IMG/VR virus record: IMGVR_UViG_2925891887_000008
Direction: 5' to 3' (one strand)
Length of the DNA stretch: 38,557 nt
From: a virus
Taxonomy: Duplodnaviria; Heunggongvirae; Uroviricota; Caudoviricetes
The first letter of the stretch is position 1. Each line of letters opens with the position of its first letter. The notes beneath the pieces are model-generated. The model was not told the DNA's origin. It made no database searches and saw nothing but the letters and a program-made list of their open reading frames with translations. The position numbers and the translations under genes were made by a program. Positions 1,382 through 37,824 of this stretch are shown here, one piece after another.

Positions 1382-3067
1382 GTGAATATAAACGTCGCCG
1401 AATTGTTAAATGGGAATTACATTTTGTTATTATTTGTGGTCCTCGCGCTTGGGCTATGTCTCGGAAAGTTACGACTTGGTTCGATCCAACTGGGTAATTC
1501 CATTGGCGTTTTAGTCGTATCGCTGTTATTAGGCCAACAACATTTCAGCATTAACACCGATGCGCTTAATCTTGGCTTTATGCTGTTTATTTTCTGCGTC
1601 GGGGTCGAAGCCGGACCGAACTTTTTTTCCATTTTTTTTCGCGATGGGAAAAATTACCTAATGTTAGCACTGGTGATGGTTGGCAGTGCGCTGGTGATCG
1701 CCTTAGGGTTAGGTAAGCTGTTTGGCTGGGATATTGGCCTGACGGCCGGTATGTTAGCAGGCTCTATGACGTCGACACCGGTTCTGGTCGGTGCTGGCGA
1801 TACACTGCGTCATTCCGGCATGGAAAGCAGGCAGCTCTCACTGGCACTGGATAATCTGAGCCTCGGGTATGCCTTAACCTATTTAATCGGTCTGGTGAGT
1901 TTGATTGTTGGTGCGCGTTACTTGCCGAAATTGCAGCATCAGGACTTACAGACCAGCGCCCAGCAAATCGCCCGCGAACGTGGCCTGGACACTGATGCCA
2001 ACCGTAAGGTTTATTTACCGGTGATCCGCGCCTATCGCGTCGGCCCGGAGCTGGTGGCCTGGACCGACGGCAAAAATCTGCGTGAACTGGGTATTTATCG
2101 ACAAACCGGCTGCTACATTGAACGTATTCGACGTAACGGGATTCTGGCAAATCCAGACGGTGATGCCGTGCTACAAATGGGCGATGAAATAGCGTTGGTA
2201 GGCTATCCCGACGCCCATGCCCGACTCGATCCCAGCTTCCGTAACGGTAAAGAAGTTTTCGATCGTGACCTTCTCGACATGCGTATCGTCACTGAAGAAG
2301 TGGTCGTTAAAAACCATAACGCTGTAGGTAAACGTCTCGCACAACTGAAGTTGACCGATCACGGTTGCTTCCTTAACCGCGTCATTCGTAGCCAGATTGA
2401 GATGCCGATAGATGACAACGTCGTGCTTAACAAAGGTGACGTTTTACAAGTCAGCGGTGATGCCCGTCGCGTAAAAACCATCGCCGATCGCATCGGCTTT
2501 ATCTCGATTCACAGCCAGGTCACTGACCTGCTGGCATTTTGCGCCTTCTTTGTTATTGGGCTGATGATCGGGATGATCACCTTCCAGTTCAGCACATTCA
2601 GTTTCGGCATGGGGAACGCTGCCGGGTTGTTATTCGCCGGAATTATGCTGGGCTTTATGCGTGCTAACCACCCGACCTTCGGTTACATTCCGCAAGGTGC
2701 ATTAAGCATGGTGAAAGAGTTCGGCTTGATGGTGTTTATGGCAGGCGTTGGTCTGAGCGCCGGTAGCGGTATTAATAACGGCCTGGGCGCGATTGGCGGT
2801 CAGATGTTGATTGCCGGATTAATTGTCAGTCTTGTGCCCGTGGTTATCTGTTTCTTGTTCGGTGCTTATGTATTGCGAATGAACCGCGCACTGTTGTTCG
2901 GCGCAATGATGGGCGCACGCACCTGCGCGCCGGCAATGGAGATCATCAGTGATACAGCTCGCAGTAACATCCCTGCGCTGGGCTATGCGGGCACCTACGC
3001 AATCGCCAACGTCCTGCTGACGCTGGCAGGGACAATCATCGTCATGGTATGGCCAGGATTAGGATAA
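1382..3067 (+). CDS. ybjL: Putative AAE-family transporter YbjL (561 aa)
   Basis: 561-aa ORF with GTG start, hydrophobic N- and C-terminal transporter halves flanking a soluble central region; matches remembered YbjL. Confidence 0.85.
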
Positions 3068-5194: not shown

Positions 5195-8100
5195 GCGTCG
5201 TATCCCCCCTGATCGCTGTAGTTACTCCTGGCTTTTGCCTTCAGCCTGCGTTCACGTTCATCAAGCTGGCGTGCCACCTCCCGCGCAATATCCTGCGCAC
5301 TTTGTCCTGGCTGCATCTGAATGATGATCTGCGTCGGTGCCTCAATCCTGTAAACGGGCGGCACAGTGGCTGCACGACTCACCATCGCTTCGCCGCCTTT
5401 CGCGGGAAGTGCCAAAGGATGCAACGGTGGAAGCTCTGCAGGCGCGGCAGCAACGCCCATCATTCCGGCAACAACGGCAGCCAGTGCAGCTGTATTTCTC
5501 CGGCTGGTCACATTTGCCGGGCCGTTAACAATTTCCGGCCCGTTTTCACCGACGATGCCAAACTGCCCGCGCGGGATATAGCCGCCGCTGTCATACATCC
5601 CCGCAAAGCCATATCCCCATGACGGAAAACCACCCGATGGCATCATCACTTTACCGTTTGTATTCACCGTCGCAGGTTGCTGACGCGTCACACTTTCCGG
5701 TAGTTTCGCCTTTGCGGCCTCTTTACTGACAACGCCGAGTTTCTCCAGCAACCAGGAAACGCCGGATTTCAGGGAGTCCAGCGGATGCATGACCATATTC
5801 AGCCCTTCCGCCAGTGCCTCCCCGAATCGCCGCCCCATTGCCGCTGCACTCTGCAGTTCGGCAGAGGTTGACTTAACGGGCGTCAGCAGATCAGTAAACC
5901 AGCCCCACAGCGCCTGTACTTTGTCGCCAATCCACTGGAACACGGGCTTAAGCGGTTCGAATGCTGCACTGACGGGACCTGCCGCCGCTTTGAATCCTTC
6001 CACCACGCCACCAAGAAATGCGGTGATGGGTTGCCAGTATTTCCAGACAACCAGCGCCACGCCCGCCAGTGCAGTAACCACAAGACCTATCGGACTGAGC
6101 AGAGCACCTAACAGACCAGATACGGCATACAGGGCAACGCGCAGCATCGCCAGTGGACCAGATGCCAGTACTCGCAGCACCGTGCCTGCGGCGGCCAGTC
6201 CACCACGCAGTACCGCCAGAGGATTCATAAACATCACAGCAACAGCACGTAAACCGGATAATCCAGACCGCAAAAGTGCAACCGGCGCACCTGCTACAGT
6301 TTTCAGGACATTTCCCGTCAGTGATGCCGTGCGGCGCAAAGACGACAACGGCGCAGTAAGTAAACCCGCAGCGTGGCCCGATGAAGCAAGCCCGCGTCGC
6401 AGCAGTGCCAGTGGTGCGCCAGCCAGCCAGGACAACGCGCTGCTGGTTCGAGTTACTGCTGCCGTAACGGAAGGTAACGTTTTGATACCCAGCACAGAGA
6501 ACCCCAGACGGATCACTGCCAGCGGCCCCAGCACTGCAGCTAACACCACCGCTAAGGTGCCGAGGCCCACGGTAACCGCAGCCACAACAGCCGCCGCTTT
6601 CATCAGTGTGCCCGTCAGTTCCGGGTTAGCTTCCACCCAGCGACGCAACGCCCCCGTGACGCTTTTCACCGTGAACAGAATATCCATCAGCGGCTGGCGC
6701 AGCGTTTCGCCCAGGCTGCTGAAGGTGTTCTGCGCTCCGGTTTTGACCAGCAACCACTGAGCAGAAAGTGAGTCTTTGTTGATGTCGGATTCTTTCTGCA
6801 TGGAGCCGAGCGCATCATTGCCCGCTGTCAGTTTTAGCTGGCGCTGCAGTTCCGGCAGGTTGTTTGCCAGTTTCGCCGCGTCATCGCCAAACTCTTTACC
6901 AAACAACATGGTCATGGCAGACAGGCGCTTATCCTGCGGCAGCGCGTTCACCTTCTCCAGCACGCGCTGGATGGTTCCCATCGCATCCTTCGTCATCTGC
7001 TTTTCAATCACTTCAGGATTGAGTTTCAGCAGATTCATCCCTTCAAAGAAACTCTTGCTCTGCATGGTGGCAATGGACAATTCACGCACCATCGCGTTTG
7101 CTGCACTGGCTGCAACCTCTGGCGCAGCGCCCAGTGTCAGGAAGGTGGAACCCAGCGCCGCCGCTTTACGATAATCCAGACGATCAGCCACACCGCCCAG
7201 GCGTTGCATGACATCAATGATGTCTGCCCCTTTCGACATGGCGTTATCATCCAGATAGTTCAGCGCATCACCGAGCTGTTCAATATTGCGGGTAGGGATT
7301 TTGTAGAGCTGGGCGATTTTCCCCAGACTTTCTGACAGTTCATCCGCTGGCAGCTCAAAGGCTGTTGCCGCCTTTGCTGCCGTACTGGCGAAGGCCAGCA
7401 GGTCACGTTTCTGGTCCTCCCAGCTGTCGTCAGGGTTTGCAACGTTCATACGCGCACCACCTTCAACCAGTGCAGCGAAGTCCACCGCACCGTTTTCCAT
7501 CGGCAACTGTTCGCTGGCAGCTTTGATGGCATCCTGCATTTCATAAAAACGTGCAGTGCGGTTGCCATTATCGTCACGCAGACCATTGACCTGCTTTGCC
7601 ACACCTTTCATGGCATCTTCCATGCTGGTATAGCTTTTTACTGCCGCCATCACTGGCGTCCCCATTGCCAGCCCTGCCGCCGTGGTGGTGGCTCCGGTTC
7701 CTGCGATGCGATCGCGCACCTCCAGCGAACGGGCATAACTGGCACGCGCTGCATTCATCCTGCGCTGAGCTTCCCCCAGTCGCTTCAGCCGCGCCTCCTG
7801 TTTCGACAGTTCCTGGTTATAACGTGATGTTTCACGGGCTAAACGGGCAGTTGCTCCCGCATCATCTTTCGCAGAAATTCCCGCCCGGTACAGTTCTGCA
7901 CGCACAAGCGCCGTTTGCTTCTGCAAATATTTTTGTTGTTCTTCCAGGCGTTGGACTGCCAGTGTTTGCCGACCTAAAGCCACAAGGTGCCGTTGTGATG
8001 GTTGTTCCATCGCTTCCAGCTCAGAACTAAGCAAATTTGCCTTCTGTCTGGCATAGTTCAGCCTGTCGCCTAACTTTTTGTTATCGGCCTGCAGCTTGCG

Positions 8101-23792: not shown

Positions 23793-25559
23793 ATGAACAC
23801 CACACTGACACTCGCAGATCTCGATCCCCGTCGGCAGGCCATGCTGCTGTACTTTCAGGGATACCGCGTAGCCCGCATTGCTGAAATGCTGGGCGAGAAA
23901 GTTTCAACCGTTCACAGCTGGAAAAAACGCGACAAGTGGGGTGACTATGGGCCGCTGGATCAGATGCAGCTCACCACCGCCGCACGCTACTGCCAGCTCA
24001 TTATGAAGGAGCACAAAGAAGGGAAAGATTTCAAAGAGATTGACCTGCTGGCGCGCCAGTCGGAACGCCACGCGCGGATCGGCAAGTTTAACAATGGCGG
24101 CAACGAAGCCGACTTAAACCCTAACGTCGCCAACCGCAACAAAGGCCCACGCCGTCAGCCGGAAAAGAACGTTTTCACCGATGAACAGATTGAGAAGCTG
24201 GAAGAAATCTTCCATTCCTCCATGTTCAACTACCAGCGCCACTGGTGGGAAGCTGGAAAAACCAACCGCATCCGCAACCTGCTGAAGTCACGCCAGATCG
24301 GCGCGACCTTTTACTTTGCCCGTGAAGCCCTGATTGACGCCCTGCTTACCGGACGTAACCAGATTTTCCTTTCCGCCAGTAAGGCACAGGCTCACGTCTT
24401 TAAGCAGTACATCATCGACTTCGCTAAAGAAGTGGAGGTGGAGCTGAAAGGCGATCCGATGGTGCTTCCTAACGGGGCCACGCTTTACTTCCTCGGCACC
24501 AATGCCCGCACGGCCCAGAGTTATCACGGCAACCTGTATCTGGATGAATATTTCTGGATACCGAAATTCCAGGAGCTGCGCAAAGTGGCTTCCGGTATGG
24601 CTATTCACAAAAAATGGCGACAAACCTATTTTTCCACGCCATCCAGCCTGACACACAGTGCTTATCCGTTCTGGTCCGGTGCGCTGTTCAACCGTGGGCG
24701 CAACAAAGCCGATAAGGTGGACATCGACCTGTCCCACAGCAATCTGGCCCCCGGCCTGCTGTGCGCAGACGGGCAATACCGCCAGATAGTCACCGTAGAA
24801 GATGCGGTGCGCGGCGGCTGTAACCTGTTCGACCTTGACCAGTTGCGCATGGAATACAGCCCGGACGAATACCAGAACCTGCTGATGTGTGAGTTCGTGG
24901 ACGATCTCGCGTCCGTGTTCCCGCTCAGCGAGCTGCAGGCGTGCATGGTGGACAGTTGGGAAGTCTGGACCGACTTTCATGCACTGGCCCTGCGCCCGTT
25001 TGGCTGGCGCGAAGTGTGGATCGGTTATGACCCGGCAAAAGGTACGCAGAACGGCGACAGCGCCGGATGCGTGGTGGTGGCACCGCCAGCCGTGCCGGGC
25101 GGTAAGTTCCGCATTCTTGAGCGTCACCAGTGGCGCGGAATGGACTTCCGCGCCCAGGCTGACGCCATCAAAAAACTGACCGAACAGTATAACGTGACCT
25201 ATATCGGCATCGACTCGACCGGCGTCGGTCACGGGGTTTACGAGAACGTGAAAGCGTTTTTTCCTGCCGTCAGGGAGTTTGTCTACAACCCCAACGTTAA
25301 AAACGCCCTGGTACTCAAGGCCTACGACATTATCAGCCACCGCCGTCTGGAGTTTGACGCCGGGCACACCGACATTGCGCAGTCATTTATGGCAATCCGT
25401 CGCGCCACCACCGCCAGCGGCAACCGCCCGACCTATGAAGCCAGCCGCAGCGAAGAAGCCAGCCACGCCGATCTGGCCTGGGCAACGATGCACGCATTGT
25501 TTAACGAACCGCTGCAGGGCGAATCCGCCAATACCAGCAATATTGTGGAGATTTTTTGA
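23793..25559 (+). CDS. P: Terminase ATPase (large) subunit P
   Basis: 588-aa ORF; N-terminus MNTTLTLADLDPRRQAMLLYFQGYR... typical of P2-family P. Confidence 0.9.
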   Translation: MNTTLTLADLDPRRQAMLLYFQGYRVARIAEMLGEKVSTVHSWKKRDKWGDYGPLDQMQLTTAARYCQLIMKEHKEGKDFKEIDLLARQSERHARIGKFNNGGNEADLNPNVANRNKGPRRQPEKNVFTDEQIEKLEEIFHSSMFNYQRHWWEAGKTNRIRNLLKSRQIGATFYFAREALIDALLTGRNQIFLSASKAQAHVFKQYIIDFAKEVEVELKGDPMVLPNGATLYFLGTNARTAQSYHGNLYLDEYFWIPKFQELRKVASGMAIHKKWRQTYFSTPSSLTHSAYPFWSGALFNRGRNKADKVDIDLSHSNLAPGLLCADGQYRQIVTVEDAVRGGCNLFDLDQLRMEYSPDEYQNLLMCEFVDDLASVFPLSELQACMVDSWEVWTDFHALALRPFGWREVWIGYDPAKGTQNGDSAGCVVVAPPAVPGGKFRILERHQWRGMDFRAQADAIKKLTEQYNVTYIGIDSTGVGHGVYENVKAFFPAVREFVYNPNVKNALVLKAYDIISHRRLEFDAGHTDIAQSFMAIRRATTASGNRPTYEASRSEEASHADLAWATMHALFNEPLQGESANTSNIVEIF

Positions 25560-26626
25560 TGGGAAAGAGTAAGAAGAACCGCGCTGCGGCGACGAAACAG
25601 ATCCAGCTTAAAAGCCAGACTACAGCCGAAGCATTCAGCTTCGGCGATCCCGTTCCTGTTCTGGACCGCCGAGAACTGCTGGACTATGTGGAATGCGTAC
25701 AGATGGACCGTTGGTATGAGCCGCCCGTCAGCTTTGACGGACTGGCGCGCACCTTCCGCGCTGCCGTGCATCACAGTTCCCCGATTGCAGTAAAGTGCAA
25801 CATTCTGACCAGTACCTATATCTCTCATCCACTGCTCAGCCAACAGGCTTTTTCGCGTTTTGTGCAGGACTATCTGGTATTTGGTAACGCCTACCTGGAG
25901 AAACGCACGAATCGATTCGGTGAAGTTATCGCCCTTGAGCCTGCGCTGGCAAAATACACCCGACGCGGGTTAGACCTGGATACCTACTGGTTTGTGCAAT
26001 ACGGTATGGCCACGCAGCCGTATCAGTTCACGAAAGGCAGCATTTTTCATCTGATGGAACCGGACATCAACCAGGAGATCTACGGCCTGCCCGGTTATCT
26101 TTCAGCCATTCCGTCCGCCCTGCTCAATGAGTCCGCCACGCTGTTCCGTCGAAAGTATTACATTAACGGCAGTCATGCTGGCTTCATCATGTACATGACC
26201 GACGCTGCGCAGAACCAGGAGGATGTGAACAACCTCCGCAACGCGATGAAAAGCGCCAAAGGTCCAGGCAACTTCCGCAATCTGTTTATGTACTCGCCTA
26301 ACGGCAAAAAGGACGGACTTCAGATTATCCCGTTGTCAGAAGTCGCAGCGAAGGATGAGTTTCTGAATATCAAGAACGTGAGCCGCGATGACATGATGGC
26401 TGCGCATCGTGTGCCGCCACAAATGATGGGGATAATTCCCCAGAACATCGGCGGCTTTGGGGATGTAAGCAAAGCAAGTAAGGTATTTGTTCGTAACGAA
26501 CTGACGCCTTTACAAAGGCGAATACAAGAACTTAATGAGTGGCTATGTGACGAGGTTATCAAGTTTGACCCCTACAAACTTGATATTGAAGATAACAATC
26601 ACTCTGCTATCATACCTATCATCTAA
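25556..26626 (+). CDS. Q: Portal protein Q
   Basis: 356-aa ORF overlapping the P stop (ATGA). Confidence 0.9.
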   Translation: MMGKSKKNRAAATKQIQLKSQTTAEAFSFGDPVPVLDRRELLDYVECVQMDRWYEPPVSFDGLARTFRAAVHHSSPIAVKCNILTSTYISHPLLSQQAFSRFVQDYLVFGNAYLEKRTNRFGEVIALEPALAKYTRRGLDLDTYWFVQYGMATQPYQFTKGSIFHLMEPDINQEIYGLPGYLSAIPSALLNESATLFRRKYYINGSHAGFIMYMTDAAQNQEDVNNLRNAMKSAKGPGNFRNLFMYSPNGKKDGLQIIPLSEVAAKDEFLNIKNVSRDDMMAAHRVPPQMMGIIPQNIGGFGDVSKASKVFVRNELTPLQRRIQELNEWLCDEVIKFDPYKLDIEDNNHSAIIPII

Positions 26627-26631
26627 ATTTC

Positions 26632-26655
26632 AACCGCCATCAGGCGGTTTTTTGT
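26632..26655 (+). terminator. Intrinsic terminator after Q
   Basis: AACCGCC-ATCA-GGCGGTT hairpin followed by TTTTTTG. Confidence 0.6.
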
Positions 26656-26710
26656 TTCCAAACCAAACCTACTATGATACACACAGTAGGAAAAAAATTG
26701 GAGCATTTAT

Positions 26711-27337
26711 ATGGATATCGAAAAGCTAAAAGAATTTTACGAAAAACTTTACTTTCAGGAAACGGAAAATAAAGACAAGATTTACAACAGAATTCAAATG
26801 ATATTTGGATTAATAGTAATCGACGCAACTATCGTAACATATCTGCTTAAAAACACATCCTTTGAAAATCATGCATTCTTTGCCTGCATTGTTATAGGAC
26901 TTTCATTATTATCAGTGTTTTTTATTTATAAAGCCTGCATGCTCCTAAAAAAAGCATTTTGGGGTAATGAATTCAAATACATTCCCAAACCTAAGGAAAT
27001 AGACGAATACTACAATGGCCTCATTAAATATGAAGCAGACTATAAAAAATATTGTGATAATAATGGGCTTACCTATAATGGTGAGCACTCATCAAGTAAA
27101 AAGTTCAATGAATACTTAGTAAAACAACTAGTAGAGTGTACTAGTTGGAATACTAAGAAAAATGAAATGAGAACAAGTCAAATATATCGAGCCACTAAAT
27201 TCTTTTTTTTCTCACTAATTCCATTAGTGATAGCGGTTGGCTTTTTTTTAGCGATGGATCTCGATTCAGCCTCGCCAAGGAAGACTAATGAGCCACATTT
27301 CATTATTATACCTGTAGATAATATCAGGAGATTATGA
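26711..27337 (+). CDS. AT-rich cargo membrane protein (208 aa, about three TM helices), unknown function
   Basis: RBS GGAG, ATG at 26711; hydrophobic segments at about residues 30-46, 55-73 and 164-182. Confidence 0.5.
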   Translation: MDIEKLKEFYEKLYFQETENKDKIYNRIQMIFGLIVIDATIVTYLLKNTSFENHAFFACIVIGLSLLSVFFIYKACMLLKKAFWGNEFKYIPKPKEIDEYYNGLIKYEADYKKYCDNNGLTYNGEHSSSKKFNEYLVKQLVECTSWNTKKNEMRTSQIYRATKFFFFSLIPLVIAVGFFLAMDLDSASPRKTNEPHFIIIPVDNIRRL

Positions 27338-27462
27338 TGGGAAAAGCCCCTACACCTAACAAGCCACCAGCGAAGACTCCAACTCCGCCGACACCGCCGA
27401 CACCGCCTAAATCTAGGCTAGTGAGAGACGATGATTCGAAAGCCAAAAGCAAAAGAGGTTAA
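27334..27462 (+). CDS. Proline-rich micro-protein a (42 aa; KTPTPPTPPTPPK core, SRLVRD motif)
   Basis: ATG overlaps the upstream stop (ATGA), RBS AGGAG; 9-bp in-frame repeats. Confidence 0.4.
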   Translation: MMGKAPTPNKPPAKTPTPPTPPTPPKSRLVRDDDSKAKSKRG

Positions 27463-27468
27463 AGTATC

Positions 27469-27642
27469 ATGATAAAGCCCAGCAACGAAGGAACTGGAAA
27501 ACCAAATTCTACAAGTAAATCACCTGTACCGCCTCAGCCGCCTCAGCCGCCTCAGCCGCCTCAGCCGCCTCAAACAAGGTTAGTACGAGAAAGCTTTGGA
27601 GAATACATTTCAAAGAGAGATACGAAAAATGACAAAAAATAA
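27469..27642 (+). CDS. Proline-rich micro-protein b (57 aa; (PPQ)5 core, TRLVRE motif)
   Basis: RBS AGAGG, ATG at 27469; (CAGCCGCCT)x4 tandem repeat. Confidence 0.4.
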   Translation: MIKPSNEGTGKPNSTSKSPVPPQPPQPPQPPQPPQTRLVRESFGEYISKRDTKNDKK

Positions 27643-27736
27643 CGAGCAAAAACCACCACCACCACCACCACCACCACCACTACCACCATCGTCCCGCATG
27701 CTATTTGATCACGCGGCCCCCCCTAAGAAGAAATAA
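27629..27736 (+). CDS. Proline-rich micro-protein c (35 aa; P9-L-PP core, SRMLFD motif)
   Basis: ATG at 27629 overlapping the end of b; (CCA)n tract. Confidence 0.35.
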   Translation: MTKNNEQKPPPPPPPPPLPPSSRMLFDHAAPPKKK

Positions 27737-27778
27737 CCTTAAGCCTGCGACTTAGCAGGCTTTCTTCATTAGCGCGCG

Positions 27779-27797
27779 CTCGTATCCCCGCCACGCC
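27779..27797. other. Candidate cos site (19-nt cohesive end)
   Basis: CTCGTATCCCCGCCACGCC closely resembles my recollection of the P2/186 cos core (complement GGCGTGGCGGGGA...); lies between Q and A as expected. Confidence 0.35.
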
Positions 27798-28139
27798 TGC
27801 CCGCTTTATGTAGTGGTTTTCATGCAGGTGCATGATCTACGCAAAAGCCCGCCAGTTCTGGCGGGCCTTAGCAAAAACGATCCTCAAACGATCATGCAAT
27901 CTCATGCAGCATAGACATGCACAGACGAGTAAAGCGAATCGGACTTTACGCAAGGTGAACTCCTCAGCGGGCATAATCAGTATGTCGGAAGATCTCTAAA
28001 AATGAATAATTCGGTTAACAGGTATGCTTACAAAAGCATATATTTGATTAAAAATCATGTAAGGGGGAGGATCTCAAACTGAATCGCCACGGGTTTTACA
28101 AATTTCGATAGTCTCTCTAACGTTTCGGCTGAGGTCAAA

Positions 28140-28565
28140 ATGAAAAGCTTTTACGTATTAATTTTAATTCTGGTTGCAAGCTTTGTTAGCGTCCCAGTTC
28201 AGGCGGTAACAGCTAAAAACTATGAGAAAGGAACTAAAGCTCAACAGAAATCAATATCTTACCTTTCATGTGCATTCTATGGCAGTAGCACACAATTAGA
28301 TCCTAGCTACACGGAGCAAGTACCTACAGCCGATATCAAGATATTACAGAAAGCAGCTTACCACGCTTACAACGATGCGCTCTCATACTTTGGCTATGAG
28401 GAACCAGATCACGAACAACGCATAATTGATTATGCTGAATTTGTGGCGTCGCAAGAAGCTGTGTTATGGGATAAGCCGGGAATGAATGGAAAGCAGGTAA
28501 CACTAATTGCTCGTTCTCTCTACAATGAGAGTAACTGTAACTTGTTACTGGACTCAATTAAGTAG
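28140..28565 (+). CDS. AT-rich cargo secreted protein (141 aa, Sec signal peptide), unknown function
   Basis: RBS GAGGT, ATG at 28140; N-terminal hydrophobic signal with ...VQA/V cleavage-like site. Confidence 0.5.
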   Translation: MKSFYVLILILVASFVSVPVQAVTAKNYEKGTKAQQKSISYLSCAFYGSSTQLDPSYTEQVPTADIKILQKAAYHAYNDALSYFGYEEPDHEQRIIDYAEFVASQEAVLWDKPGMNGKQVTLIARSLYNESNCNLLLDSIK

Positions 28566-28724
28566 GAAAAAGATGGTATTTTGCCCGTAGTTTCAACCTT
28601 AATCTCCGAACCTGTCGCAGAACGGGCGTTCACTCATCAAATAAACGCCACACCTAACGCCTCACTGTACTCGTTGTTCAACCTTGCTGACGCCAGAACC
28701 AAGTTCAGACGCCAGCAACTTTTC

Positions 28725-28958
28725 TTAATGCAGCCAGCTGTCGTCTTCCCACACCTTCTGCATAATCTTCATCACTTGTTTTCTTTCTTCGTCCAGTTGC
28801 AGTCCGGTCAGTTCCACACCGTTAGAGCTACCTTTGCGGATGCGAATTACCGTTTTGGGATACAGGGGGCGCAGATTGCGGTAAAGCTCGGATTCAAGGG
28901 CGTCCAGGGTAGACTGGCTAATCTTCTGCTCTTTATCGATCATTATTTCAATGCGCAT
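28725..28958 (-). CDS. dinI: DinI-family protein (DNA-damage-inducible protein I-like)
   Basis: MRIEIMIDKEQKIS...LDALESEL...KVWEDDSW parallels E. coli DinI; start taken at the internal Met. Confidence 0.75.
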   Translation of the reverse strand: MRIEIMIDKEQKISQSTLDALESELYRNLRPLYPKTVIRIRKGSSNGVELTGLQLDEERKQVMKIMQKVWEDDSWLH

Positions 28959-28968
28959 AAAGGTCACC

Positions 28969-29157
28969 TCAGCTGATGACATCCATTGAGCGGTTGTATT
29001 CGTGGGTTCTGATTTTTGCCATGAGTTCATCTGTCAGTTCAGAAACCCACTGCAAAGCCAGCCCCTTCTCTTCATCACTACACTCACTAGCCGCTACAAG
29101 CTTAAGAAAAAAATCAATGCGCTGGAGCTTCAAAGACTCCAAAAAATAGTCCTGCAT
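28969..29157 (-). CDS. Small SOS-controlled ORF (62 aa) upstream of dinI-like gene; possible Tum-like antirepressor N-module
   Basis: RBS GGAGG, ATG at 29157, LexA box about 45 bp upstream. Confidence 0.4.
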   Translation of the reverse strand: MQDYFLESLKLQRIDFFLKLVAASECSDEEKGLALQWVSELTDELMAKIRTHEYNRSMDVIS

Positions 29158-29200
29158 CTTTCCTCCTATGACACCACAAGCAATACTGTATACATAACCA

Positions 29201-29216
29201 CTGTTTATATTTACAG
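29201..29216. promoter_or_regulatory. LexA box (CTGTTTATATTTACAG)
   Basis: Perfect CTGT-N8-ACAG with AT-rich spacer, upstream of the minus-strand small ORF and dinI-like gene. Confidence 0.6.
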
Positions 29217-29310: not shown

Positions 29311-31725
29311 TTAATACAGGTTTCGCCACTTATCATCTTCCTGCAAACGCTGGTTCCGATAGAAGATACGCAGGCCTGCTCCTGACGGAATACTGCCGCC
29401 GCGAAGGAGTAAATCGACCTCTTTCTCGCTGCCATTAAATCCTCTGGACTTCAGTTCATAGACGAGCTGCTGTCGCTGATGGTCTGTAATTCGCTGTTTG
29501 TAGTCTTTACGCCGTTTCGGTTTCACCAGGCGTAACCTTGCAGCCAGTTCCCGGCGCTCTTTTTTGCTCATACTGTGCAGGTAATCGTGCAACTCCTTGT
29601 CATCCATGCGGGTAATGTCCGTCCTAGTATCCCCATCAGCTGATTTGTCTTTCCCTTGTTGGTTCAAATTTTCAGCAAGGGGACAGTTATTGCCACGAGT
29701 CCAAGGGGCGCAAGCGCCCTGGTCGGCTGCCGCCTCCTGAACGTCAACGGCCTTACGAACCATTTTCCACTTCACCGCATGAGTGCAGATCTTGCCCTCT
29801 GCAATGGGTGACCAGATGCCATAAATACGAATACCGTGATCGCCATATGCGGTCGGTTCTTCGTTGATTTCATAAGCAGTTCTGATGAGGTGATATTTGC
29901 GGGGAACCAGTACGCCTCCCTGCTTCATGATGTAGGTGGCAAAACAACCAGCATCGGCAGCAGCCAGGATTGCATCAAGGCGCGGGTTATCCAGTACCGG
30001 CGCACCTGCTTTTTTGTCCCCCTGTTGCCTTGCCGCCTGACCAGCCAGCAATCGCAGTTCACGGTAAGCCTGACGCCCCGGAATGCCAAAGAAGCGGAAT
30101 TGCTGAACACGATGCAGAGACGCCCAGGCATTAACGTATTCAGCGTTATCACGCAGGGATTTACCCGTTTCCTTGCTGATCTCGCCAGCCAGACCACGCC
30201 CGTCAATGTTCTTACTGATGTATTTCGCGATGTAGCTTGTTGGCGTACCTTTGCGCGGGTTTATCAGCTCAGACTTAAAGCGTGGTCCCGTGTTATTACC
30301 CAGCTCCTCGCGGTCTTCACGAATGGCAAACTTACGCAACAAAGCAGTAATGGTGCGGCGATCTTTTTTGCGCATAAAACACAACAGGTGCCAGTGAACT
30401 GTACCGTCATGATGCGGCTCAGCCACCCGCACGCCATACCAGCGCAATCCGGCTTTGTGCATCGCCTTACGAAATGCAGCAAACATGCCGACCAGATAAT
30501 CACTGCTTTGTCTTACCGTCGTATTTGTCCAGGTCGGGTTGGGCCTGCCGTTATTTAGCGTGGAATGGAAACGTGACGGACAGGTGATGGTGTAGAAAAC
30601 GGCGCAGTCACCGCGCATTTCCGCGATAAGCTCCAGACCTTTAACACAGGCCATCATCTCATTGCGGCGATGCGCAGGGTTGCTGCTGCTGGCGTTTACC
30701 ACATCCTCCATGTCCAGCGTGTCGCCGTCTTCGTTCACCAGTTCATGAGAACGGAAAAACTCCAGCGACTTACGGCGCTGCTCACGTTTATGCATCATGG
30801 CTTCATAGCTGACATAGGGAGATGCTTTTTTGCTGACCAGGCAAACAGCACGCAACTGCTCTTCCCGCCATTCGCAACGCATCTTCCATAATTTCCGGTA
30901 CCACCAATCGGCGCACAACATACGCGCCAGCGAACCCGGAATGAGTTCATAGGGCACGGGTTTACGGCGGTTTCTTTTCCGGCGGAGTTGCTCAAACGCA
31001 GGCGGTATGACATCCAGTCGCAGGGTTTCTGCTGCCACCTTTTCCCATGTCTTGCGGATTTCTTCTGGCTTAACGTCATCGGTGGCATACAAATCGCCAC
31101 AAGCTGCATCAAGGCACATGCTCATATGCGCAGCAACAAGGGTGGACAGGCGTTTCACCTGATCCTGACTCATTTCAGGCAGAATCAGCAGGCCGTCCAG
31201 CCCTTCATGGCTTGCCATAAAGCGAAAAGAAGTGGATAGCTGACTGTCGCGTACATGCTCCAGCCGTTCCAGACATGGCTTAATCGTCTCACGTAAATAG
31301 CGGGAATAAGCCTTTGGCCTGCCAAGGCTGCTGAAGTATTCAATACGTTGCATCAGCGGCCTGCTGATATGGGAAGGCTGGGCGTTAACGTCTGCCAGAA
31401 TGACCATGTCCGGGTTAAAACGCTGCTGCTCATGCGCCAACTTTGCCCGGCTAATGAACTTATCCTGCTCCATTTCGCGCTGGACAGGATCACGGGATTC
31501 ATTAAAGAAATAACGCTCCCAAACCTGATCACTCAGTGCCTCGCGGCGCAGTTGTTCCTGCTCGTTATCGGCAGCGTACAGAGTGATCAGGTTTGAAAGC
31601 GCAGAAACCGGCGCAACTTCCGCCGGGTCCAGATAAGGGTTAATAGCCTTTTTCGGGCTGTTCCATGAGAATGCTGCGGCGGCCTCGTTAAAGCCGCTGC
31701 AGTTGTTCATATCAGCATGGCTCAT
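29311..31725 (-). CDS. A: Replication initiation endonuclease A (rolling-circle)
   Basis: 804-aa ORF at the P2 gene A position, upstream of cos. Confidence 0.85.
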
Positions 31726-34380: not shown

Positions 34381-34505
34381 GATGCAACATTCCTCGTTTA
34401 ATGATGATTAATCAGGACGAATACGGATCGTTTGTATTTTGTGAACACCATAAACATACGATCGCACTATGAAATCGTCAAGATAAAAGTTCACTTGGAG
34501 TGACC
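34381..34505. promoter_or_regulatory. Immunity switch region (face-to-face lytic/lysogenic promoters and operators)
   Basis: 125-bp gap between divergent apl and cI; GTGAAC...GTTCAC inverted repeat at 34442-34447 / 34489-34494. Confidence 0.35.
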
Positions 34506-35075
34506 ATGAATTTGGAGAAAGGCGGACGAGGCGCTATAGAGCGCATGGTAGAAGCTTATGGATTCAAAACTCGACAGGCGTTGTGCGATCATTTAGGAAT
34601 CTCTAAAAGTACACTCGCTACACGCTACATGCGTGACTCATTCCCAGCAGAATGGGTAATCCAGTGCGCCCTTGAAACGGGCACCTCGCTTAATTGGCTC
34701 ACAACTGGACATGGTTCAAAGCAAACTTCAGGTAATACAAATACGATGGAAGTTGCTAAATATGTATTATCTGATGGTGCCTTGCGTGAAGACGGTTTTT
34801 ATATTTTTGATAAGGGATTTCTACCCTCTACGTTTAAAAAACCTTTTGTCATCACAGATAACAATTCTGAATTTATTTGTGATAAAGAATTTGATGATAT
34901 ACGTGATGGTAAATGGGTAATAAGTATTGATGGCGAAATAACAATCCGCGACATTACTCGTTTACCCGGTGGAAGAATCTTCGTTGAAGGTGGAAACAGA
35001 ACCTTCGAGTGCAAGATAGAAGATGTTGAAATAATTGGAAAAATTATAAGTTTGACAATTAAGTACGTTAGGTAA
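34506..35075 (+). CDS. cI: CI immunity repressor (186-like)
   Basis: 189-aa protein with N-terminal HTH-like region (EAYGFKTRQALCDHLGISKSTLATRY), RBS GGAG; the track ORF starts 6 nt upstream at a GTG. Confidence 0.8.
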   Translation: MNLEKGGRGAIERMVEAYGFKTRQALCDHLGISKSTLATRYMRDSFPAEWVIQCALETGTSLNWLTTGHGSKQTSGNTNTMEVAKYVLSDGALREDGFYIFDKGFLPSTFKKPFVITDNNSEFICDKEFDDIRDGKWVISIDGEITIRDITRLPGGRIFVEGGNRTFECKIEDVEIIGKIISLTIKYVR

Positions 35076-35433: not shown

Positions 35434-36748
35434 GGGTCTTCCCTTGTTGTGGTGGCTGAAGGCATGATAATGGTGTATTTAATCGCCAGAGGTCACCGCC
35501 ATGGACGAAAAGTCCCTCTACGCTCATATTCTCAACCTGTCCGATCCGTGGCAGGTAAAGTCCCTTTCTCTCGATGAAAATGCCGGTTCTGTTACTGTCA
35601 CTATTGAGATCGCTGAAAACACCCGGCTAGCCTGTCCGACCTGCGGTAAATCCTGTTCTGTTCACGATCACCGTCATCGTAAATGGCGCCATCTTGATAC
35701 CTGCCAGTTCACCACTATTGTTGAAGCCGATGTTCCACGAATTATGTGTCCGGAGCATGGCTGCCTGACGTTGCCTGTTCCGTGGGCTGGCCCCGGAAGC
35801 CGGTATACGTTGCTATTCGAATCGTTCGTTCTCTCATGGCTGAAAATCAGCACCGTTGATGCTGTCAGGAAGCAACTTAAGCTCAGTTGGAATGCGGTTG
35901 ACGGCATTATGACCCGGGCAGTTAAGCGAGGTCTTGCCCGGATAAAAAAGCCATTATCCGCCCGTCATATGAATGTGGATGAGGTCGCCTTTAAAAAAGG
36001 ACATCGTTACATAACGGTGATCTCCGATCGCGATGGTCGGGCGCTGGCCTTAACGGATGATCGCGGCACAGAGAGTCTTGCCGGCTATCTTCGCACGCTC
36101 ACTGATGGGCAGTTGCTGGCTATCAAAACGCTCTCAATGGACATGAACGCGGGCTATATAAGAGCAGCGCGTATCCACTTACCCAGTGCGGTTGAGAAAA
36201 TCGCCTTTGACCGCTTCCATGTGGCGAAGCAACTGGGCGAGGTAGTTGATAAAACCCGTCAGAATGAACATCCGCACCTCCCTGTTGAAAGCCGACACCA
36301 GGCAAAAGGAACCCGCTTCCTGTGGCAGTACAGCGATAAGTGGATGACCGAATCCCGGCAGGAAAAGCTGATGTGGCTGCGTGCACAGATGAAGCTGACG
36401 AGCCAGTGCTGGGCGCTGAAAGAGCTGGCAAAGGATATCTGGAACAGGCCATGGAGCGAGGAAAGACGGAGTGACTGGCAGAGATGGTTGGCGCTGGCGG
36501 CTAACAGTGACGTTCCCATGATGAAAAATGCCGCGAAAACGATAGGAAAAAGGCTGTACGGGATCCTGAATGCGATGCGACACAGTGTCTCAAACGGAAA
36601 TGCGGAGGCACTTAACAGCAAGATCAGGCTGCTGAGGATAAAAGCCAGGGGATACCGAAACCGGGAGCGCTTTAAACTGGGGGTGATGTTCCACTACGGA
36701 AAGCTGAATATGGCGTTCTGAGCCTTCCCACCATGATCGGGGAAGACC
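35434..36748 (+). mobile_element. ISL3-family insertion sequence (1315 bp)
   Basis: Imperfect terminal inverted repeats GGGTCTTCCC..TGGTGG at both ends, single transposase ORF, 8-bp duplication. Confidence 0.8.
35501..36721 (+). CDS. ISL3-family transposase
   Basis: 406-aa ORF with N-terminal zinc-ribbon-like CPTCG...CPEHGC and a DDE-like core. Confidence 0.8.
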   Translation: MDEKSLYAHILNLSDPWQVKSLSLDENAGSVTVTIEIAENTRLACPTCGKSCSVHDHRHRKWRHLDTCQFTTIVEADVPRIMCPEHGCLTLPVPWAGPGSRYTLLFESFVLSWLKISTVDAVRKQLKLSWNAVDGIMTRAVKRGLARIKKPLSARHMNVDEVAFKKGHRYITVISDRDGRALALTDDRGTESLAGYLRTLTDGQLLAIKTLSMDMNAGYIRAARIHLPSAVEKIAFDRFHVAKQLGEVVDKTRQNEHPHLPVESRHQAKGTRFLWQYSDKWMTESRQEKLMWLRAQMKLTSQCWALKELAKDIWNRPWSEERRSDWQRWLALAANSDVPMMKNAAKTIGKRLYGILNAMRHSVSNGNAEALNSKIRLLRIKARGYRNRERFKLGVMFHYGKLNMAF

Positions 36749-36756
36749 CTTATACA
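36749..36756. repeat. ISL3-family element target-site duplication, right copy (TTATACAT)
   Basis: Identical to 35426..35433. Confidence 0.75.
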
Positions 36757-36792
36757 TACAGTAAAAATGCTCTCTATTGGAGGGCATTTTTT

Positions 36793-37824
36793 ATGGCAGT
36801 ACGAAAACTCACCACAGGAAAATGGCTTTGCGAATGTTACCCCGCCGGACGTAGTGGGCGTCGTGTGCGTAAACAATTCGCCACCAAAGGCGAAGCACTG
36901 GCTTTTGAGCGTCACACGATGGAAGAAACCGAAGCAAAGCCCTGGCTGGGCGAATCAGTAGATCGTCGAACCCTGAAAGACGTGGTTGAGCTATGGTTCA
37001 AACTACATGGTAAATCTCTGACTGCTGGGCAGCATGTCTATGACAAATTGCTGCTGATGGTTGACGCTCTGGGCAATCCCCTTGCAACCGATCTCACATC
37101 TAAAATGTTTGCCCATTATCGAGATAAACGACTGACAGGTGAGATCTACTTCAGCGAGAAATGGAAGAAAGGGGCCAGCCCGGTCACCATTAACCTGGAG
37201 CAAAGCTATCTAAGTAGTGTTTTTAGCGAACTATCCCGCCTGGGCGAATGGTCGTATCCAAACCCACTGGAGAACATGCGAAAATTCACCATCGCAGAAA
37301 AAGAGATGGCATGGCTTACCCATGAGCAGATTGTTGAACTGCTGGATGATTGCAAACGTCAGGACCCAATTCTGGCACTGGTAGTCAAGATATGCTTAAG
37401 CACAGGCGCACGCTGGCGAGAAGCAATAAACCTAACCCGATCACAGGTGACCAAATACCGAATTACCTTTGTAAGAACGAAGGGGAAGAAAAACAGAAGC
37501 ATCCCTATCAGTAAAGAGCTTTATGAAGAGATCATGGCGCTTGATGGGTTCAATTTCTTCACAGACTGCTATTTTCAATTTTTATCCGTGATGGAAAAAA
37601 CGTCTATCGTGCTCCCTCGCGGTCAACTTACACACGTTCTGCGTCATACGTTTGCGGCGCATTTCATGATGTCGGGTGGAAACATCCTTGCTTTGCAAAA
37701 AATCCTCGGACATCACGACATAAAAATGACTATGCGTTATGCTCATCTATCACCTGATCACTTAGAGACAGCTCTTCGTTTCAATCCACTAGCAACTTTG
37801 GATGTTACTAAATCAGATTCTTAA
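36793..37824 (+). CDS. int: Tyrosine integrase (P2/186 family)
   Basis: MAVRKLTTGKW...LSTGARWREA...HVLRHTFA...YAHL has the tyrosine-recombinase catalytic residues; RBS GGAGG. The track ORF has a spurious upstream extension. Confidence 0.9.
   Translation: MAVRKLTTGKWLCECYPAGRSGRRVRKQFATKGEALAFERHTMEETEAKPWLGESVDRRTLKDVVELWFKLHGKSLTAGQHVYDKLLLMVDALGNPLATDLTSKMFAHYRDKRLTGEIYFSEKWKKGASPVTINLEQSYLSSVFSELSRLGEWSYPNPLENMRKFTIAEKEMAWLTHEQIVELLDDCKRQDPILALVVKICLSTGARWREAINLTRSQVTKYRITFVRTKGKKNRSIPISKELYEEIMALDGFNFFTDCYFQFLSVMEKTSIVLPRGQLTHVLRHTFAAHFMMSGGNILALQKILGHHDIKMTMRYAHLSPDHLETALRFNPLATLDVTKSDS

Follow-up and report, generated by a model that had tools for sequence, protein, structure and literature searches.

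What does the small protein encoded between the cos site and the SOS operon of this prophage do, and is its gene carried for the phage, for the host or for neither? The window analysed here, a stretch of 38,557 nucleotides, is a prophage of the 186/P2 type with an E. coli host, and 8 complete E. coli chromosomes are 100% identical to its segment 27700-28700. A first-pass annotation, made from the letters of the window, had singled out one ORF in this segment as an AT-rich gene for a secreted protein and a candidate lysogenic-conversion or exclusion factor. The ORF matches phrog_7437 with an E value of 4e-99, and the identical protein occurs in at least 1000 contigs. It is found in 100/5426 complete E. 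coli genomes, so that a gene without functional annotation is nevertheless carried by ~2% of them, in the best-studied prophage defence hotspot.

Both flanks of the ORF could be fixed by alignment and annotation (Table 1). On the left, the window sequence at the cohesive end (ctcgtatccccgccacgcc/tgcccgctttatg...) aligns with the reverse complement of the annotated P2 cosR (gtgctttccccgcctcgcc/cgcccgcttcacg...), and the right end of 186 aligns with it as well. The surrounding cos block is also conserved in Fels-2 and RE2010 and in P2-like phages of Klebsiella and Yersinia; among related prophages homology picks up again at ~27768-27773, and in prophages without the gene it ends at 27922. On the right lies an operon with the arrangement of the annotated 186 p95-LexA-tum region, preceded by the single perfect LexA box of the window. 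Since the cohesive end and the LexA-box operon were located on either side of it, the earlier placement of the ORF between cos and the SOS operon is correct. RefSeq gives the same setting for strain AR_0019, one of the 8 chromosomes identical in segment 27700-28700: terminase and portal genes, a hypothetical gene, WP_000834899.1, a DinI-like gene, a 62-aa hypothetical gene and a replication endonuclease. We considered membership of the ORF in the SOS operon and rejected it, because the ORF is on the opposite strand and is missing in most relatives; no LexA box was found in the cassette that contains it.

Table 1. Features of the cos-proximal region, in window coordinates.
Feature	Position	Strand	Basis or remark
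Portal gene	25556-26626	+	
Conserved cos block, left boundary of the cassette	27770-27922		Homology limits among related prophages
19-nt cohesive end	27779-27797		Alignment to P2 cosR and the 186 right end
AT-rich accessory cassette (moron), 732 bp: upstream region, ORF and 3' tail	27923-28654	+	Empty-site alignment
Sigma-70-like promoter candidate, TTAACA-18-TATATT	28015-28044	+	10/12 consensus positions
Perfect palindrome ATGCTT-ACAA-AAGCAT (ATGCTTacaaAAGCAT) in the promoter spacer	28024-28039		Read from the sequence
Shine-Dalgarno GAGG	28131-28134	+	5 nt before the ATG; conserved in relatives
CDS, 141 aa, WP_000834899.1, phrog_7437	28140-28565	+	RefSeq 'hypothetical protein'
Predicted Sec (SPase I) signal peptide, residues 1-22, putative cleavage after VQA	28140-28205	+	
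Mature protein, 119 aa, 13.4 kDa, pI 5.1, predicted five-helix bundle with C44, W110 and C133	28206-28562	+	
SOS operon, right boundary, convergent with the ORF	28725-29216	-	Pfam, phrog, RefSeq annotation, LexA box
DinI/Tum-like gene	28725-28958	-	Pfam DinI, E 1.3e-22
orf62	28969-29157	-	phrog_698
LexA box CTGTTTATATTTACAG, upstream of orf62 and the DinI/Tum-like gene	29201-29216		Perfect match
gpA	29311-31725	-	

The extent of the insertion is defined by an empty site. In one prophage (L049) 7 unrelated bases replace ~27923-28654, with junctions at 27922 and 28654; the cassette therefore consists of a 217-bp AT-rich upstream region, the ORF and a tail of ~90 bp, and it starts exactly where the conserved cos block ends. 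We surveyed 1289 E. coli records matching the cos-to-gpA interval, 100 of which contain the ORF. When these records were sampled at even steps down the ranking, the flanks were found to be contiguous (~815-820 bp in all) in many prophages, and the remaining sampled prophages had different inserts in the slot. Four of the latter were retrieved. Genes seen in place of the cassette encode an acidic protein of 111 aa (in the E. coli B lineage), a GNAT acetyltransferase, an HNH endonuclease and a DUF6236 protein. The prophages L050-L052 have such other genes in the slot, and most 186-like relatives are without the ORF. The GC content of the cassette is 40.9% (40.1% in the 217-bp upstream region, 40.4% in the ORF), as compared to 50.7% for the whole window and 51-53% for the backbone, and GC3 falls to 38.7% in the ORF from 56.9% in gpA (GC 52.8%) and 60.2% in the portal gene. 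In L026 the ORF is identical (dS 0) and the portal gene of the backbone is just 75% identical, which suggests that divergent phages have exchanged either the right arm or the cassette. The gene thus has two marks of a moron, presence or absence at precise junctions among close relatives and a base composition unlike that of the backbone, in support of an independent accessory cassette at the cos-proximal genome end. The AT-rich codon usage unlike the phage backbone that was described earlier is in this way borne out, and a moron for a secreted protein is a reading that we hold with high confidence.

The expression signals of the cassette are less uniform. The good ribosome-binding site noted at first pass is present and conserved. 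As to the further proposal, that the upstream region is suited to an independent promoter, the region is AT-rich and contains a sigma-70-like site kept with 1-2 changes in Klebsiella-type relatives (~86% DNA identity), but sigma-70-like sites are no commoner in the region than in shuffles, and the candidate is for this reason no more than suggestive. The palindrome in the promoter spacer is kept in 3/4 aligned relatives (L002, L042, L041 (1 change)) and absent from L044, and there is no second copy of it in the window. No Ogr-type TGT-N12-ACA late-promoter element was found in the cassette; such elements are present elsewhere in the window at the expected late-operon positions. Between the ORF and the convergent DinI-like gene, we found no intrinsic terminator and no significant RNA structure.

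The ORF belongs to a small family that is confined to Enterobacterales and comprises about 25 clusters. A word-indexed search of 5.8 billion proteins returned 7 close clusters (E. coli, Klebsiella aerogenes, Hafnia alvei, Enterobacter roggenkampii), a full HMMER profile search across 1.84 billion representatives brought in 11 distant relatives, 126-168 aa long and 24-40% identical, and an additional profile search yielded members from Salmonella, Citrobacter farmeri and K. aerogenes. In an alignment of 15 full-length members C44, W110, Y128, N132 and C133 are invariant, and the most conserved stretch is DYAEFVASQEAVLWDKPGMN. With six members added, including the truncated P0005, C44 and W110 remain invariant among the 21 and C133 nearly so; all full-length members keep the C44/C133 pair, and a 20-residue motif persists in members with as little as 24% identity. 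Pairs of orthologues have dN/dS values of 0.14-0.27, and on this measure the protein is under purifying selection. Because of these ratios, the phrog_7437 match and the motif-sharing homologues at 24-40% identity, the comparisons confirm the ORF as a real gene, beyond chance.

The N-terminus (MKSFYVLILILVASFVSVPVQA/V) begins with MK, continues with a hydrophobic core whose 10 residues average 3.26 on the Kyte-Doolittle scale and ends in PVQA/V. The hydrophobic core and a small-x-small site are found in 21/21 family members despite their diverged sequence, so the typical Sec signal peptide claimed at first pass is a predicted three-part N-terminus retained throughout the family. A K or R precedes the core in 20/21 members, the exception being P0016, and in P0005 a lipobox (LSAC) replaces the SPase I site. 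Each of the 21 members has two Cys past residue 22. From these features we infer that the product is exported by Sec. The protein is acidic, with a GRAVY of -0.5. The structure prediction that had been suggested as a check gave a mediocre model for the full-length protein (pLDDT 76), in which the signal peptide is a detached low-confidence helix, and a model of the mature protein with a pLDDT of 95.5 and a pTM of 0.88 when AlphaFold2 was run on the 21-sequence alignment. The modelled helices span mature residues 3-31, 41-62, 69-88, 98-108 and 111-118, and we predict with confidence that the mature fold is a five-helix bundle. In the model C44 is part of helix 1, and C133 is located where the last helix begins; the two probably form a disulfide.

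Neither sequence nor structure placed the protein in a known family. Searches of Pfam, NCBIfam and PADLOC gave only noise matches (PepQ and LolA, E 0.08-0.23), with no Pfam match at E up to 1 for the window protein or its 21 relatives and 0 families at E up to 1 among the PADLOC-DB 2.0 defence models. The Pfam negative covers the families of the periplasmic lysozyme inhibitors Ivy, MliC/PliC and PliG. Nothing useful was returned from the PDB by sequence or by profile, from deposited phage genomes by tblastn or from BFVD by Foldseek, and hhalign gave probabilities of 2.6% for K139 Glo, 3.2% for T4 Spackle and 0.3% for 186 Orf97. The family members are all named 'hypothetical protein' in the sources bar one automatic name, 'outer membrane lipoprotein-sorting protein', which we rejected because it rests on the insignificant LolA match. 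Homology to a core phage function, the result that the first-pass annotation had named as telling against a cargo gene, was not found in these searches; nor did they, or the gene neighbourhoods, give a homology, structural match or neighbour tying the protein to known exclusion, defence or virulence proteins.

All family members with an informative genomic context are in prophages or in plasmid-like surroundings. The K. aerogenes orthologues occupy the same slot in 186-like prophages, there without the DinI-like gene. A 77%-identical orthologue (L044) lies downstream of tail-tip J and tail-spike genes in another phage type, and P0026 is found close to genes for a tail spike, DinI and UmuDC at the end of a prophage. 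Two relatives (P0015, L047) follow the exonuclease, Sak4 and SSB genes of a lambdoid early-left operon, and three (P0016, P0013, P0009) adjoin an integrase at the eco/mqo site, two of them in overlapping small-gene operons. P0022 is carried by a replicon of 84 kb whose cargo is of plasmid type (IS elements, mer operon, HicA), and P0010 is found beside ParA/ParG. For P0008 a 1.3-kb contig with two unannotated neighbours was retrieved, too short to be informative on context. No neighbour gene is conserved among the relatives, and no T6SS, Rhs, CDI or bacteriocin gene was seen beside them.

The position of the gene invites comparison with the cargo of the type phages. P2 has old-tin in the slot between the replication end and cosR, transcribed in the direction away from cos into an mRNA whose start is 150-170 bp inside cosR. 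The ORF shares this slot and orientation, so the earlier likening of the site to the end-of-genome position of P2 old/tin cargo holds. Like old-tin, it is non-essential, present in only some relatives and preceded by a promoter, here a candidate, just past the conserved cos block. The products differ: Old is annotated as an AAA-family ATPase/exonuclease, whereas the ORF product is small and predicted to be exported, and Pfam and PADLOC searches found no sequence relationship of it to P2 Old or Tin. Old and Tin act in the cytoplasm. In 186, the closest type phage, the same tum-cos interval is filled by orf97, which is annotated 'expression from plasmid blocks 186 infection' and whose product has two N-terminal hydrophobic segments, by eye suggesting membrane spans. 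Unlike the window ORF, orf97 encodes 243 aa on the tum strand, within the LexA-controlled transcript, and is not homologous. Judged by location and alignment, the protein is a positional counterpart of both P2 old-tin and 186 orf97 and a member of neither family.

Small periplasmic phage proteins offer likenesses in form. Glo of K139, from another prophage of the P2 family (Peduoviridae), has 137 aa, a signal peptide and Cys near both ends of the mature protein, and is annotated as a periplasmic protein involved in phage exclusion; unlike the window ORF, glo is located in the cI-int lysogenic operon, away from cos, and there is no detectable homology. T4 Spackle (Sp) is likewise a small periplasmic phage protein with a signal peptide, again without homology by hhalign. 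Spackle inhibits the tail lysozyme gp5 and thereby blocks superinfection. T5 Llp and phi80/N15 Cor are small exported outer-membrane lipoproteins that block the receptor from inside the envelope, and genes of this type are often encoded after tail-fibre genes. Two relatives of the ORF are found after tail-spike genes and one member has a lipobox, as in Llp and Cor, but the window protein has a predicted SPase I site and no lipobox.

Based on these comparisons, we propose tentatively, and at somewhat less than even chances, that superinfection exclusion is the most likely role of the protein. Interference at the level of the envelope is the best supported because carriage of the family is confined to temperate phages and plasmid-like contexts, because the slot of the ORF holds exclusion cargo in the type phages (old-tin, orf97), and because relatives occupy positions of the kind used by exclusion genes, namely after tail-fibre genes, in early-left operons and beside int. 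The gene would probably be transcribed from its own sigma-70-type promoter, away from cos, as in P2 old-tin. The 141-aa product would be exported by Sec and cleaved after Ala22, and the acidic 13-kDa five-helix bundle would fold in the periplasm, probably stapled by the C44-C133 disulfide. There it may work alone as a soluble, stoichiometric binding protein. Its most conserved surface is predicted to be the DYAEFVASQEAVLWDKPGMN helix and loop; the helix-3/loop surface would be the contact site. By analogy with known systems, the target would be either a component of the envelope that penetration requires or, in the incoming phage, a protein of the tail tip or of ejection, and cell-wall penetration or DNA entry of that phage would fail. 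A more far-reaching version of this proposal, possible but doubtful, is that the family represents an unrecognised stand-alone periplasmic gatekeeper, a helical protein, perhaps stapled by a disulfide, to which the structure libraries searched offer no match. It would block the genome entry of unrelated phages and perhaps of other incoming DNA, and would be carried as a single-gene cassette across at least 4 temperate-phage types and plasmid-like elements of Enterobacterales.

Several observations speak against exclusion. A fast arms race would not be expected to leave purifying selection and a highly conserved motif as its signature. The searches gave no PADLOC match and no known exclusion protein related by homology or fold, and the promoter match is not statistically unusual, with no intrinsic terminator 3' of the gene. 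The tight coupling of some relatives to their phage operons could reflect a role in the cycle of the carrying phage itself, such as masking of a receptor or of an envelope component against the loss of progeny on debris, or tuning of lysis or of lysis-from-without in lytic growth. The distant relatives in lambdoid early-left operons after recombination genes fit such a role, as do those in overlapping, probably translationally coupled operons beside the integrase. The ORF is also convergent with the SOS operon, and induction could therefore change its expression. Yet the gene is dispensable in 186-like phages, it stands alone with its own upstream region and without a late-promoter element, and other members of the family are in plasmid-like contexts, so that we consider a role in the phage cycle quite unlikely. 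A further possibility, that the sequence hitch-hikes without selectable function or encodes no real protein, might be read from the lack of any function, partner or known domain and from the weak promoter and terminator signals. It is contradicted by selection and conservation: the dN/dS values, W110 in 21/21 members, the Cys pair in all full-length members, the persistence of the 20-residue motif, a predicted signal peptide in every member and a very confident model. This reading is barely credible.

If the protein does serve the bacterium, the threat that it meets need not be a phage. A lysogenic-conversion factor could help the cell, in the environment or in an animal host, against lysozyme, antimicrobial peptides, serum or envelope stress, and an AT-rich moron with predicted export features and a possible promoter of its own suits that description. 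P2 hotspots also carry virulence cargo, e.g. cytolethal distending toxin (PMC9122126), and clinical isolates of E. coli commonly have the exact protein. We regard conversion as unlikely, however, given that neither a lysozyme inhibitor nor any other Pfam family was matched at E up to 1 with the 21 members, that no known virulence neighbour was seen, and that the family occurs in prophage and plasmid-like contexts only, phage early operons among them, and never as a chromosomal core gene. Alternatively, the protein could be an orphan immunity protein against competitor toxins that act in the periplasm, such as a T6SS amidase, muramidase or lipase, a colicin or another bacteriocin. No relative adjoins an effector, which lowered our confidence in this reading to the point of calling it improbable; neither effector-adjacent members nor fold similarity linked the family to T6SS periplasmic immunity proteins (e.g. 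Tai4). Superinfection exclusion thus remains our preferred reading.

The interval from gpA to gpQ has been described as a hotspot for anti-phage systems (PMC9122126, Rousset et al. 2022; PMC13586616), and the ORF lies in its cos-proximal part, between gpA and the portal gene Q and adjacent to cos. In the accessible part of Table S5A of PMC9122126, WP_000834899 is listed among the P2 loci at least 32 times, and its partners in the locus table vary, e.g. HIRAN and DUF262/DUF1524 proteins; the protein sequence was not found in the accessible part of Table S5B of Rousset et al. The papers searched for WP_000834899 gave no mention in their text and no statement of function, expression or phenotype. 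We compared 30 loci that carry the ORF, taken from IMG/VR contigs, Klebsiella assemblies and the window itself. In these loci the sequence ceases to be homologous to the window where the portal gene ends (~26545-26586). Homology returns at cos (~27770), from where the carriers are 97-99% identical through the ORF to gpA, with the Klebsiella-type loci at about 86%. The portal-side segments of the 30 carriers fall into 22 unrelated clusters. Their cargo is nearly all on the minus strand and is therefore transcribed away from cos, and where Pfam annotation is available it includes AIPR, nSTAND and DUF4325-associated genes. The large cargo with rapid turnover is mostly on the portal side of cos in the carriers, and is defence-like where annotated. 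A single system made of the ORF and the Q-side cargo was considered and rejected, as the two vary independently (22 cargos in 30 carriers); the ORF is for the same reason outside those systems, a second small moron across cos. The main defence system of the hotspot is thus other than the ORF, which is an extra small moron.

What is new here is the unannotated family; its kind, a prophage moron for an exported accessory protein, is known. Small exported single-gene cargo is missed by defence catalogues built from cytoplasmic, multi-domain systems. Should the protein block phage entry, it would be a cheap, portable barrier at the envelope, relevant to host range in phage therapy, and would offer a new protein scaffold with which to examine the passage of phage DNA through the periplasm. 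Should another function prove true, the cos-proximal slot would be more than a defence locus.

Across cos, the portal-side cargo of the window (26711-27736) is more unusual than the ORF cassette. It encodes a 208-aa protein for which we read two membrane spans, and 3' of this gene come three micro-ORFs (42, 57 and 35 aa) that lack annotation; each has its own Shine-Dalgarno sequence and a proline run. The three share the motif (S/T/K)R(L/M/I)V(R/F/I)(D/E), and in E. coli and Serratia the peptides recur 3' of genes whose products are 51-58% identical to the 208-aa protein. Between AR_0019 and the window, one in-frame 9-bp (PPQ) unit differs in the second micro-ORF.

Independent cargo slots are found on both sides of cos, at 26586–27768 and 27923–28654. 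Taking the window and comparison loci L002–L045 together, most cargo of both slots is transcribed away from cos. Thirty loci that carry the 141-aa gene have 22 unrelated portal-side cargos, and among those of the Klebsiella loci are AIPR, nSTAND and DUF4325-associated genes. A minus-strand pseudogene in the RefSeq annotation (27723–27905; 6024–6206 in comparison locus L001), labelled "hypothetical protein, internal stop", spans the cos block; the call is probably spurious because the stretch is the conserved packaging site.

Features of the cargo slots, the SOS operon and the insertion
Feature	Position	Strand	Remark
Portal-side cargo (apparent module)	26711-27736	+	3' end at terminator 27741-27762
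Micro-ORF 1	27334-27462	+	42 aa; ATGA overlap with stop of preceding gene
Micro-ORF 2	27469-27642	+	57 aa
Micro-ORF 3	27630-27736	+	35 aa
Recurring micro-ORF peptides, E. coli	L064 3651-3994
Recurring micro-ORF peptides, Serratia marcescens	L062 3755-3980
Perfect 16-bp palindrome ATGCTTacaaAAGCAT	28024-28039		inside spacer of the 141-aa gene's candidate promoter
DinI/Tum-like gene	28725-28958	-
62-aa phrog_698 gene	28969-29157	-
Perfect LexA box CTGTTTATATTTACAG	29201-29216		upstream of the 62-aa and DinI/Tum-like genes
ISL3-family transposase gene	35501-36721	+	Pfam DDE_Tnp_ISL3, E 1e-55

The portal-side cargo of the window has the appearance of a multi-gene module and is without annotation. 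Its 208-aa protein (WP_048237166) is assigned to phrog_36961 and has a weak PADLOC match to "2TM effector" (E 2e-4). Downstream lie three micro-ORFs, all proline-rich, each with a Shine-Dalgarno site and all sharing the motif Pro-run-(S/T/K)R(L/M/I)V(R/F/I)(D/E). The repeat codons are not the same between the micro-ORFs (CCGCCGACA, CCGCCTCAG and ACC), and the matching prophage of the E. coli chromosome AR_0019 has one in-frame 9-bp unit less than the window. In E. coli and Serratia marcescens, the micro-ORF peptides recur 3' of homologues of the 208-aa protein, which are 51–58% identical to it. Together, the 208-aa protein and the micro-ORFs may constitute an unrecognised system of the P2 hotspot.

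On the other side of cos, the palindrome within the 141-aa gene's candidate promoter occurs as a single copy in the window. Most Klebsiella-type relatives conserve it, L041 with a single change, and L044 lacks it; it may be an operator for a regulator. The 141-aa ORF is convergent with the SOS operon, and no terminator was detected between the two. This operon has the layout of the p95-tum SOS operon of 186, except that orf97 is missing. Within the 141-aa family, the 125-aa member from Enterobacter roggenkampii (P0005) has a truncated C-terminus, and its SPase I site is replaced by the lipoprotein signal LSAC, which suggests that a membrane-tethered form of the family's domain can also work.

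The ISL3-family transposase gene sits between the CI repressor gene (34500–35075) and the integrase gene (36733–37824). The early region survives in a prophage remnant of Klebsiella aerogenes (GCA_049153265.1; L004 4114–8426), as do the 141-aa gene and, as cargo, an nSTAND1 gene; the portal and the remaining structural genes of the portal side are missing. The remnant's cargo directly adjoins a host Asp-Al_Ex (YbjL-like) gene, of a family whose member at 1382–3067 borders the tail end of the window prophage.
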